In this document: positions 21,474 through 23,342 of the stretch, piece after piece
How positions within the stretch are numbered: the stretch's first letter is position 1
How the letters are laid out: the number at the start of each line of letters is the position of its first letter
Origin: Candidatus Saccharimonadota bacterium
GTDB lineage: Bacteria > Pseudomonadota > Gammaproteobacteria > Enterobacterales > Enterobacteriaceae
Direction of reading: 5' to 3'
Length of the DNA stretch: 32,000 nucleotides
Assembly (NCBI RefSeq): GCF_014857065.1
Contig: NZ_CP046533.1
Location: 60,001-92,000, forward strand
Made by a program: the position numbers and the translations under genes
The notes under the pieces: generated by a model
Databases searched by the model: none
Told to the model about the DNA's origin: nothing
What the model saw: only the letters and a program-made list of their open reading frames with translations

Positions 21474-23342
21474 TTAATCAGAGAAATCATCTTTCGTTGA
21501 ATTTTCTTCATCCGAATTTGAATTACTACTATCGCTATATATTAAGAGTGCTTTTCTACTCAAAATTTTAGATAAAACATCGTTGTTTTGACTATCATAT
21601 TTGATATTTAAACGATCTTCTTGTATTTTTTGTAACTTTAAAAGATGTTGTTCATTTCCTAAATTTAAAAATTTACTATTTTTAGCAGAAATAAGATTTT
21701 CCATCATTTGGTTATGTATATTTGTATTTTTGCTTTTTTGAAGTTGATTACTTTTTTTATTAATTATATCATAACTCTTTTCATTCAAGGTCGATGATGT
21801 TGATGGCGTTTGAATTACTGTTGTTGGTAATGATGTAGGTAAAGGAGGTGGTACAGGACACAGAAAACTGTTATCATTACCTTTATCTTCTTTTAATTGT
21901 TTTTTCATTTCGTCTACTTTTGTTGTTTCAGTCTTTTTTAAGTCTTTATCTTGTATTTTACATTGATTTTCATCTAATTTACTTACTGTGTTATTAGTGC
22001 TATTAGTTGTAATTGTTTTCTTATTATCTTTTGATAAATTTTCACCTGGTATAGCATATGAAGTTGATGGTTCGTAATTTTGTGATATTGTTGATTCTTT
22101 ATCTTTTTGATTATAACAAGATTGATTATCAATTGCTTGTTTATCTTGTTGCTTTTCTGTTTGTTTATCAATATTTGCTTTATTAATTTTTTGATCCTTA
22201 TTTTTTACGGCAACTTGCTTTTGTTTTTTACTATCATCGACAGAATGGTTATTTGCTTTTGTTTCTATATTTTTAGGAAAATCACTATTATTTTTTCGTC
22301 CCATTTTCCTTTCAATTTTTTTTAGAAATCTTTCTTTGCCCAATTCTATTTTTTCTTGAGTATTATTATAAAAAGAAGTTTGTACTAAGTGATAACCTTG
22401 CATTTTATTAGAAATTTTCTTAACTAAAGGTATATTATTATCTCGTACAACGAATTTATATAGATTACCATTAAGTGTTTTACCAAGAATATTAACATCC
22501 TTTAACTGTTGGTTAAAAGGTGTTCCGAATTCGTAGTTAATTAATATATTGATTTTTTTTTCTGTACAGAAATTTTTATTAAAGGTTTCACTTATGCTAA
22601 AAGTAATTATTGATATAGGATTAAATTCAATTTCAGTTACCCAATTTAGTAAATTTTTATTCTGTCTTGTTTTAGATAAATTTAAAATTTCATCATAAAA
22701 ATAATATTTTAATTTCAATGTACCTGATAACGATGGATAAAAACGCAACCAACTACCAACATTTAAATCATAACCATTAAGAACATGCTCTTTATTTATA
22801 CTACCTTGATTTGAAAAATATCGATTAGTTAAGGCATAATATTTATTAACTGTTAAATAAAAATAATTACAAAAAAATTCAGTACCTACACTTAAACGAT
22901 GATAGTTTTCATCAGAAAGCTGCATATCATAAAAAGTATTATATCCTACAAACCATCGATTATCACGAACGATTCTTTGACCTACACCAACATTCAGAAA
23001 ATTAATTTTTTTAATATTTTTAATACCGGTCTGAGTAAAAATGAAGTAATTGTGATCTTGATATACTTTACTCATTAAATCGATCAAATTATTGCTAATT
23101 CTTAGTTTAGTCAATAAATCATGTTGTTCATTTTTTATATTGTTTTCATTTTTTATATTGTTTTCATTTGTTATTGTTTCATTAATTGCCCTATATTGTT
23201 TATTTAGAATGTTTTTGTTCTTTTCAGATAATACGCCTTGAACTTCAGATGACACTTGATGGTACCTAATGTCGGCTTTACTATTCAAGTTAAAAATTGC
23301 AATTGCGATAATAAATAGCAAACACTTAATTATTTTTTTCAC
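21474..23342 (-). CDS. inverse autotransporter (invasin/intimin-family beta-barrel) with a non-canonical low-complexity passenger
   Basis: A signal peptide MKKIIKCLLFIIAIAIFNLNSKA is present. Residues ~95-310 (NVGVGQRIV...W.VGYNTFYD......HRLSVGTEF....YLTVN.Y..L......VLNGYDLNVG..L..YPSL.G.LK..YY......L......N......E.NP.......S..........IN.L.NYEFG.P..QQL...........Y..V.RDNNIPL) are colinear with the intimin/invasin barrel (NLGAGQRFF..MLGYNVFIDQDF...NTRLGIGGEYWRDYFKSSVNGYF...ERPANGFDIRFNGYLPSYPALGAKLMYEQYYGD...NPGAATVGVNYTPIPLVT...YRYQF..PW.QQ....RYDLVQRNNNIILEY). Residues 311-622 are Lys/Asn/Gln/Ser/Thr-rich, with PVPPPLPTSLP at aa 496-506 and the acidic tail SDSSNSNSDEENSTKDDFSD. The start codon is GTG, with TAA three codons upstream, and no clear Shine-Dalgarno sequence is visible. 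Confidence 0.8.
   Translation of the reverse strand: MKKIIKCLLFIIAIAIFNLNSKADIRYHQVSSEVQGVLSEKNKNILNKQYRAINETITNENNIKNENNIKNEQHDLLTKLRISNNLIDLMSKVYQDHNYFIFTQTGIKNIKKINFLNVGVGQRIVRDNRWFVGYNTFYDMQLSDENYHRLSVGTEFFCNYFYLTVNKYYALTNRYFSNQGSINKEHVLNGYDLNVGSWLRFYPSLSGTLKLKYYFYDEILNLSKTRQNKNLLNWVTEIEFNPISIITFSISETFNKNFCTEKKINILINYEFGTPFNQQLKDVNILGKTLNGNLYKFVVRDNNIPLVKKISNKMQGYHLVQTSFYNNTQEKIELGKERFLKKIERKMGRKNNSDFPKNIETKANNHSVDDSKKQKQVAVKNKDQKINKANIDKQTEKQQDKQAIDNQSCYNQKDKESTISQNYEPSTSYAIPGENLSKDNKKTITTNSTNNTVSKLDENQCKIQDKDLKKTETTKVDEMKKQLKEDKGNDNSFLCPVPPPLPTSLPTTVIQTPSTSSTLNEKSYDIINKKSNQLQKSKNTNIHNQMMENLISAKNSKFLNLGNEQHLLKLQKIQEDRLNIKYDSQNNDVLSKILSRKALLIYSDSSNSNSDEENSTKDDFSD
23127..23169 (-). repeat. 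18-bp tandem repeat (about 2.4 copies) inside the inverse-autotransporter gene
   Basis: Perfect period-18 identity from 23127 to 23169 (plus-strand unit cattttttatattgtttt). It encodes NENNIK-NENNIK-NE in the mature N-terminal region. The period is divisible by 3, so copy-number change would stay in frame. Confidence 0.85.

Follow-up and report, generated by a model that had tools for sequence, protein, structure and literature searches.

An intact inverse autotransporter in a reduced Blochmannia genome and its possible WAVE/WASP-like terminal module

What would an ancient nutritional mutualist, living inside the cells of an ant, need a surface-display protein for? The question is raised by one gene of the Blochmannia symbiont of Colobopsis nipponica, the source of genome CP046533, which was announced at 728,116 bp (PMC8086219). 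The gene lies in the 32,000-nucleotide stretch analysed here, positions 60,001 to 92,000 of contig NZ_CP046533.1 (the window, in whose numbering all coordinates are given), and an identical protein is found on a 66-kb Logan contig from SRR12768939, the read set of CP046533. It is among the very few non-housekeeping genes kept in this ~0.7-Mb genome, its product is predicted to be surface-displayed, and it has one locus across the genus. An original prediction had named the product an invasin/intimin-type inverse autotransporter retained by purifying selection. It is now near-certain that the window protein is an inverse autotransporter (type Ve), and the best explanation of it, which we hold tentatively and at slightly under an even chance, is that it displays a putative WAVE/WASP C-A-like module toward the host cytosol.

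The identity of the protein is carried by its barrel. Its parts, all encoded on the minus strand, stand in the inverted order: a signal peptide (aa 1-23), the barrel (aa 81-310), a linker with the motif RDNNIPL (aa 300-306) and then 312 residues. The 12-stranded inverse-autotransporter β-barrel with its pore-traversing linker (22413..23102) is supported by Pfam, the PDB, AlphaFold2 (AF2), Foldseek and the ortholog discussed below. The barrel motifs that had been noted earlier are present, namely GVGQR (aa 119-123), GYNTFYD (aa 133-139), HRLSVGTE, NGYDLNVGSWLRFYPSLSGTLK and RDNNIPL, and the Pfam family PF11924 (IAT_beta) matches aa 31-302 with an E value of 3.4e-45, at 155.2 bits against a cutoff of 22.3 and covering model positions 19-279 of 279. 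Two crystallised barrels align end to end, that of Yersinia invasin (4e1t, 9e-30, aa 83-306) and that of intimin from enterohaemorrhagic Escherichia coli (EHEC; 4e1s, 1.5e-19). AF2 on a two-sequence alignment was uninformative (a pLDDT confidence of 27) and was superseded by a 95-sequence barrel alignment; the resulting model of aa 1-337 has about twelve long strands plus short linker helices, as the original prediction expected, with pLDDT of at least 90 over most of aa 81-310. When this model was searched with Foldseek, 4e1t was matched over its full length (E 4e-19, TM score on the target 0.83), 4e1s and 5g26 reached TM scores of 0.80, and other barrels lay far behind.

The label invasin/intimin-type nevertheless has to be divided: it holds for the barrel and fails for the passenger, which is without Ig-like or lectin domains and stays below the NCBIfam cutoffs. 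Scores to the intimin, invasin and YchO models range overall from 65 to 109 bits against cutoffs of 508-2400. The intimin models (68.7-71.9 bits against 1400-2050) exclude membership, the Cronobacter-type Inv N-terminal model gives 72.4 bits against 710, and even the best-scoring model, YchO/YchP NF007556 (108.6 bits, 2.7e-31), falls below its equivalog cutoff of 508. With all scores so far below the cutoffs, an identity as intimin, invasin or YchO equivalog was rejected.

Ahead of the barrel, the Sec signal peptide (aa 1-23, MKKIIKCLLFIIAIAIFNLNSKA, with D following; 23274..23342) is read from the sequence, and AF2 places a helix at residues 2-19. It is of the signal peptidase I type without a lipobox, whereas the Photorhabdus and Sodalis relatives carry LLAGC or LLASC. 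The periplasmic N-terminal region that follows (aa 24-80; 23103..23273) is short, rich in N and K and without LysM, with 31% identity and four indel events relative to the ortholog. Within it, NENNIK occurs three times, encoded by a tandem repeat with an 18-bp unit (23122-23174; 2.9 copies, 94% matches); the repeat is absent from the ortholog and therefore likely represents slippage-generated length variation.

Is the frame as a whole real? The complete coding sequence occupies 21474..23342 on the minus strand, as had been proposed, with a GTG start, 622 codons for amino acids and a TAA stop at 21474-21476. The GTG can be taken as the real start, because an in-frame TAA lies three codons 5' of it and a typical signal peptide opens the protein directly. 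At the window's GC content of 26.8%, with an expected stop frequency of 0.085 per codon, the chance of 622 stop-free codons is about 1e-24, and about 1e-12 for the C-terminal 312 codons alone; in shuffled windows (n=200) the longest open frame averages 103 codons and never exceeds 147. Internal stops number 0 in the coding frame against 35-119 in the other five frames, and in the C-terminal half 0 against 21 and 60 in the other two frames of the same strand. The earlier argument that so long a frame is hard to explain by chance is borne out by stop frequency, shuffles and frame counts, which place the frame far beyond chance.

A further argument, from the GTG start without a Shine-Dalgarno sequence to low expression, fares less well. 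The start and the missing motif are as described, but Shine-Dalgarno-like motifs are absent within 18 nt upstream of 13 of the 23 window open reading frames of at least 100 aa, including msbA, fumC and kdsB, so that their presence is no guide to expression in this genome. The divergent intergenic region between the gene and fumC (23343..23610) is likewise without such a motif and holds a weak -35/-10 candidate at 23430-23403 on the minus strand; a promoter and terminator scan around the gene gave nothing above shuffle expectation. As side observations, the coding strand of the gene is 45% A, and the GC skew, which for most of the first 21 kb lies between +0.1 and +0.37, is ~0 and -0.09 at 21001-23000, a drop that fits the gene being among the few on the opposite strand. 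Several mechanical open-reading-frame starts in the window are TTG or GTG and probably overextended.

Whether the gene is maintained is best judged from its relatives. An exhaustive HMMER search of 1.84 billion representatives returned 1045 relatives, nearly all of them through the barrel only. One is an outlier, matched at 2.2e-82 with 45% identity over two stretches: P0009, or AKC60533.1, from the Blochmannia of Colobopsis obliquus, annotated as 'inverse autotransporter beta domain-containing protein'. This ortholog is intact and sits in the syntenic slot between fumC and ubiX, which answers the earlier concern that sister strains might carry a broken copy. The window gene is presumably QOI11074, since the flanking UbiX and FumC are QOI11073 and QOI11075. 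In the gene-order table of Williams and Wernegreen (2015), BOBLI757_377, BTURN675_365 and BCHRO640_396 stand between fumC and ubiX (PMC4389277, supplementary file 3), from which it follows that the slot is filled by an unnamed gene in the Colobopsis, Polyrhachis and Camponotus lineages. No open-access paper was found that names BCHRO640_396 or BTURN675_365 by locus tag. Two other relatives were considered for the Camponotus/Polyrhachis slot: P0012 was rejected for its different genomic context, and P0018 was not taken, its contig being too short to judge the context. Other searches added little. An inverse-autotransporter query of genome contigs found no relative and a fumC query only unrelated phyla, a full-length word-indexed protein search yielded 8000 candidates through low-complexity words and not one that scored, its barrel-only version gave one distant match, a search with the barrel alignment returned generic E. 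coli-type inverse autotransporters rather than the window subfamily, and a tail-motif pattern run over metagenome contigs gave 55 chance matches, of which tblastn confirmed none.

The window protein and the B. obliquus ortholog share 39.6% identity, against 64-81% for nine neighbouring proteins, and the divergence is unevenly spread. The barrel is 50% identical with 3 gap columns and has a rough Nei-Gojobori ratio of nonsynonymous to synonymous substitution (dN/dS) of 0.33, in line with the purifying selection claimed at the outset; the passenger parts have rough values of 0.6-0.64, and all these figures are only indicative because dS is near saturation (0.8-1.3). The spacer that follows the barrel (aa 311-490) is only 24% identical, with 5 indel events and 60 gap columns, all in frame. 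Beyond it the protein tightens again: the region around a PPPLP motif has 47% identity and aa 544-573 and aa 587-602 have 50% each, all three without gaps, and the acidic tail has 44% with one 2-column gap. A constrained barrel, a free-running spacer that stays in frame and a constrained tip argue that translation to the C-terminus is under selection. The core of the original prediction is supported: the genome is that of a reduced endosymbiont, and the inverse-autotransporter gene in it is intact and kept by selection.

What, then, does the barrel display? The 312 residues beyond it do not have the make-up of an Ig/lectin adhesin. Pfam finds no family on aa 311-622 even at E<=10, and no Ig-like, lectin or other domain, so that the Big/Ig-like repeats capped by a C-type-lectin-like domain are absent. 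The two bins of the passenger (aa 311-515 and aa 516-622) are each 68% polar or charged and low in hydrophobic residues. The spacer (aa 311-490; 21873..22412) is rich in K, N, Q, S, T and D, hypervariable, free of stops and without a domain match. It is followed by a proline-rich motif, PVPPPLP (aa 496-502; 21837..21857), which reads IPPPPPLP in the ortholog and GPPPPPLP or poly-P in Photorhabdus and Sodalis. Then come a conserved helix and block (aa 544-573, NQMMENLISAKNSKFLNLGNEQHLLKLQKI; 21624..21713) ending in LKLQKI, which pairs with LRKV at the end of the WAVE1 WH2, a basic amphipathic helix (aa 587-602, NDVLSKILSRKALLIY; 21537..21584) resembling the central/connector (C) helix of WAVE1, and an acidic, Ser-rich C-terminal tail (aa 603-622, SDSSNSNSDEENSTKDDFSD; 21477..21536) that resembles the A region with Phe instead of Trp. 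Composition, the lack of domains and the pattern of hypervariability suggest that the spacer is disordered, and the passenger is best read as a disordered spacer of ~180 aa plus a conserved terminal module of ~130 aa rather than as an Ig/lectin adhesin. As in WAVE/WASP factors, a proline-rich region lies upstream and the module stands at the extreme C-terminus; the proline tract is short, and the C-A-like segment reaches the last residue.

The likeness to WAVE1 came out of a search made without prior assumption. When the last 84 aa were compared with all 177,635 PDB sequences, the WAVE1 VCA ranked first and three of the four matches were WAVE1 (E 0.37 for the single sequence), the alignment pairing WAVE1 IQLRKVEEQRE, the V end leading into C and A, with window LKLQKIQEDRL...NDVLSKILSRKALLIYSDSSNSNS and so including the putative C helix. 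A profile of the two ortholog tails raised three WAVE1 entries to 0.009, 0.049 and 0.17 and added an N-WASP CA peptide. Conversely, in a local set of 183 proteins queried with the WAVE1 CA segment, the window tail ranked first and the extreme C-termini of other relatives followed.

Controls bear on how far this likeness can be trusted. Composition-matched shuffles reached the phmmer score of the window tail in 0/5000 full and 0/5000 block-wise trials, and that of the ortholog tail in 4/5000. Since such simple shuffles are too lenient, destroying the structure of a helix followed by an acidic block, the parts were also shuffled separately: the window C helix against that of WAVE1 was then equalled in 9/10000 trials, the combined pre-C, C and A segments against WAVE1 in 0/10000, and for the ortholog against WAVE1 p was ~0.01-0.02. 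With hhalign, the Blochmannia tails aligned to validated V-end/C/A segments (WAVE1 and N-WASP as in the PDB matches, and a Pfam-validated Photorhabdus tail) with a reported probability of 80% and P 1.4e-5, the alignment spanning 37 columns and keeping the register that was expected; reversed references gave 0.25% and P 0.24.

The Photorhabdus tail leads to the wider subfamily. Next to the ortholog, the shortest barrel distances are those to Photorhabdus P0010/P0173 and P0011 and to metagenomic proteins, and in a neighbour-joining tree the window protein and P0009 group with the AT-rich P0012 and P0018/P0178. Many relatives, carried by Photorhabdus, Sodalis sp. RH21, 'Martelella alba' and metagenome/Logan sequences, share a layout of lipoprotein-type signal, barrel, one Ig-like domain and a long low-complexity passenger with poly-Pro tracts, an acidic C-terminus and a W among the last residues; the A-region Trp is present in P0173, P0011, P0017, P0154 and P0037. 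P0173, the 959-aa Photorhabdus asymbiotica protein WP_434525880.1, ends in three repeats of PLEGRDALLDAIRKNSK, then LESVFKRRFEAIHGRDEDKEGDD...DEEEWDK. Pfam recognises WH2 in it at 32.2 bits against a gathering threshold of 23.1, in 3 copies, and all six PDB matches of its tail are N-WASP, the best (6uhc_H, 2.1e-5) running from WH2 through C to the terminal EW. By these matches P0173 unambiguously carries a 3xWH2-C-A module, and the subfamily demonstrably includes inverse autotransporters with WASP-type VCA modules. P0173, P0011 and P0024 have tails with sequence links to one another (1.7e-6, 3e-3). That the Blochmannia tail comes from a WASP-type module we infer from the architecture, the relatedness of the barrels and the moderate match to WAVE1.

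Several observations weigh against this interpretation and must be set beside it. The Blochmannia tail has no significant sequence link to the Photorhabdus tails, so that homology between them, though tried, was not significant. Pfam WH2 (PF02205) is not found on the window tail even at E<=10, and a Smith-Waterman comparison of the pre-C segment with validated WH2s gives z ~0 for window and ortholog; a WH2 identity for aa 544-573 was rejected on these two grounds, and the conserved block KFLxLGxExHLLKLQ is left unexplained by a WAVE-like reading. The A-region Trp is absent, Phe being the only aromatic (DDFSD in the window, CFEDD in the ortholog). The ortholog tail alone matches no WASP-family chain across the PDB, its top match being Pex3 (E 0.9), and no WASP-family match was obtained in the PDB for the P0011 and P0017 tails or with a 10-sequence subfamily tail profile, which MAFFT had visibly misaligned. 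Against N-WASP, part-wise shuffles yield only p 0.02-0.08 for window and ortholog. The dN/dS of the tail is ~0.6, though with saturated dS, and the sequence comparison of passenger and tail covers the two Colobopsis symbionts, the Camponotus and Polyrhachis slot genes being known from the published table alone. Finally, the account of phalloidin-stained C. floridanus midguts mentions a muscle network alone and no actin around the bacteria (PMC3009655), which speaks mildly against conspicuous actin tails in larvae. The statistical support for a WASP-family likeness of the tail is only moderate.

How might such a protein work? By sequence and homology, it would be exported by Sec, its signal peptide cleaved and its 12-stranded barrel (aa ~81-310) inserted by the β-barrel assembly machinery (BAM). 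By homology to invasin and intimin and by its architecture, the C-terminal 312 residues would then be threaded through the barrel to the surface, where the putatively disordered spacer may project the conserved terminal module beyond the lipopolysaccharide layer. Blochmannia lies in the bacteriocyte cytoplasm without a symbiosome membrane, unlike Buchnera (PMC3009655), and because of this the module would be exposed directly to the cytosol of the bacteriocyte with its Arp2/3, actin and profilin; a cytosol-facing reading is topologically sensible for a bacterium free in the host cytoplasm. The layout of the module, with PPPLP, a helix ending in LxxKI, a linker of ~14 aa, a basic amphipathic helix and an acidic extreme C-terminus, appears to copy the proline-rich, V-end, C and A order at the end of WAVE/WASP factors, which makes docking to host Arp2/3 or the actin machinery at the bacterial surface its most likely role, at odds we would put close to, and not above, even. 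Such docking could serve positioning, partitioning or spread from cell to cell and into oocytes. Since no WH2 is detectable and Phe stands where Trp would be expected, the module may not activate nucleation fully and may act by binding or tethering instead, which is as plausible as a full nucleation-promoting activity. The architecture probably came down from an insect-associated ancestor of the Photorhabdus/Sodalis type, whose inverse autotransporters carry clear versions of the module. The most specific form of the proposal, in which Blochmannia recruits ant Arp2/3 through a type Ve-displayed C-A module that mimics WAVE/WASP and goes back to a pathogen-like forebear common to it and the Photorhabdus/Sodalis lineages, is possible but doubtful.

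Those inverse autotransporters that have been characterised, invasin and intimin among them, act as adhesins and bind through their C-terminal tip, and the alternative that survives best is that the window protein does so too. In this account a classical adhesin or invasin would bind a host surface receptor through its C-terminal module during short extracellular or transit phases, such as transmission from bacteriocyte to oocyte or the colonisation of further midgut cells at metamorphosis, and the likeness to WAVE would be coincidental. A barrel that clearly belongs to the invasin/intimin family and a conserved tip on a variable stalk would suit it, as would the suspicion that Blochmannia invades other midgut cells at metamorphosis and reaches oocytes (PMC3009655). 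The passenger itself is harder to accommodate, being polar, poor in hydrophobic residues and without an Ig-like, lectin or other recognisable fold; moreover, the tail matches a motif of cytosolic proteins in register and with controls, the closest relatives carry cytosol-directed WH2/C/A motifs, and the bacterium is nearly always inside the cytoplasm, where a surface-receptor adhesin has no target. We regard an adhesin as unlikely.

A further alternative is a role as a surface brush or in the envelope. The barrel would be structural, the charged and disordered passenger non-specific and the tail without a specific ligand, the whole serving, for example, to shield a naked bacterium from cytosolic immune sensors and antimicrobial peptides or to space bacteria apart. 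A passenger that is 68% polar or charged, of low complexity, hypervariable in length, without a domain match and with a rough dN/dS of 0.6-0.64 is what such a brush might look like, yet it accounts neither for terminal blocks that are 44-50% identical and nearly gap-free beside a spacer of 24% nor for the in-register C-A match, and we consider it quite improbable. That the gene is instead the decaying relic of an ancestral virulence factor nearing loss, its frame still open by luck or because weak selection acts on the barrel and nothing else, is highly improbable. In favour of a relic are a rate of evolution well above that of the neighbouring genes (39.6% against 64-81% identity), the apparent loss of WH2 and Trp, and a homolog whose passenger is truncated and fragmented in an AT-rich symbiont-like sequence. 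Against it, chance would leave 622 codons open at 25% GC with P ~1e-24 and the passenger half with ~1e-12; in both Colobopsis symbionts the entire frame has been preserved despite five or more independent in-frame indels; and a gene fills the slot in each of the three Blochmannia lineages, which have been apart since Camponotini arose. The truncated homolog, P0012, which has a lipoprotein signal, lies at 2778-4600 of Logan contig L016 (SRR32983530, 24-37% GC); its passenger stops after ~96 aa and gives way to short fragmentary open reading frames, an example of decay that has not happened in Blochmannia.

If the display of a WAVE/WASP C-A-like module toward the cytosol is the right reading, what would be new is the type Ve scaffold for a WASP mimic and its presence in an ancient mutualist. 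The barrel identity as such is already known, an NCBI annotation existing for the ortholog; the gene itself is unstudied. Searches of the open-access literature brought up no paper on invasin, intimin or inverse autotransporters in Blochmannia, none that ties inverse autotransporters to WH2, WASP or actin nucleation, and none that ties Photorhabdus or Sodalis to WH2, nucleation-promoting factors or actin tails. The protein would then be the first mimic of a nucleation-promoting factor on a type Ve scaffold, and the first such mimic in any beneficial endosymbiont; the hijacking of actin, which has hitherto marked out cytosolic pathogens, would be extended to an ancient mutualism. For decades Blochmannia has been suspected of a 'cell-invasive capacity', with no molecule to attach it to; the gene offers a concrete and testable candidate, and it bears on the positioning and partitioning of bacteriocyte symbionts that have no host-derived membrane, and on their movement between cells and into oocytes. 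P0173, from a culturable Photorhabdus asymbiotica and apparently undescribed in the searchable literature, provides a ready experimental entry point.

The genes around the locus deserve a brief account. Those of the envelope that had been listed as accompanying an intact outer membrane were all recovered in the window: EmtA (2285-2929), LolA (9001-9633), LpxK, MsbA and KdsB. Further window genes are TrxB, FtsK, SerS, Nth, SlyA and RNase T. A riboflavin synthase (Lum_binding, 212 aa) is intact at 30393-31031 on the minus strand; for B. obliquus, ribC has been reported to be a pseudogene, and the corresponding interval of contig L015 (1729-3202) carries no called gene. It is possible that the two Colobopsis symbionts differ in riboflavin provisioning. 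Gene-free and very AT-rich stretches (3978-5097, 27052-27934 and 28370-29116), with GC down to 0.19, are probably eroded genes; that at 27052-27934 is overlapped by no open reading frame longer than 37 aa. The published gene table of B. obliquus and B. turneri places oprC/yqeI/infA and pdxH near these stretches in some lineages. A 220-aa open reading frame at 3315-3977 on the minus strand has no NCBIfam match at 1e-5 and would correspond to the 'yqeI' homolog by synteny with the published gene order.

It remains to place the window protein among known systems. It is like Yersinia invasin (InvA) and the intimin (Eae) of EHEC and enteropathogenic E. coli in its signal peptide, in the motifs and fold of its 12-stranded barrel and in having a C-terminal passenger; these differ in their Big/Ig-like repeats and C-type-lectin tip, both of which the window passenger lacks along with a periplasmic LysM, and the bacterium that carries the window protein is an obligate cytosolic mutualist whose genome has 728 kb. 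E. coli YchO/YchP is likewise an inverse autotransporter with a short passenger, though an unrelated one. Closer are P0173, P0011, P0154 and P0017 of Photorhabdus and Sodalis, which share the barrel, a low-complexity passenger, a proline-rich tract, a basic helix and an acidic C-terminus, and differ in a lipoprotein-type signal and one Ig-like domain, neither of which the window protein has; P0173 further differs in its three bona fide WH2 copies and terminal EEEWDK, being N-WASP-like rather than WAVE-like. With the VCA of WAVE1/SCAR and N-WASP, the window protein shares the place of its putative module, at the extreme C-terminus after a proline-rich region, and, with WAVE1, a register of LxxK(V/I), a linker of ~14-15 aa, DV..ILSR(R/K), hydrophobic residues, YSDS and an acidic run; it differs in having no recognisable WH2 helix and Phe for the conserved Trp. 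Cytosolic bacteria that display WASP-like or WASP-recruiting sequences are well established, through Burkholderia BimA (type Vc), Rickettsia RickA and Sca2 (type Va), Shigella IcsA (type Va) and Listeria ActA, and with IcsA, Sca2 and BimA such display by type Va and Vc autotransporters is no novelty. None of the five is known to be an inverse (type Ve) autotransporter. They embody the same concept of surface WASP-like display that is tentatively proposed here; all of them come from pathogens, whereas the window protein belongs to an ancient nutritional mutualist.

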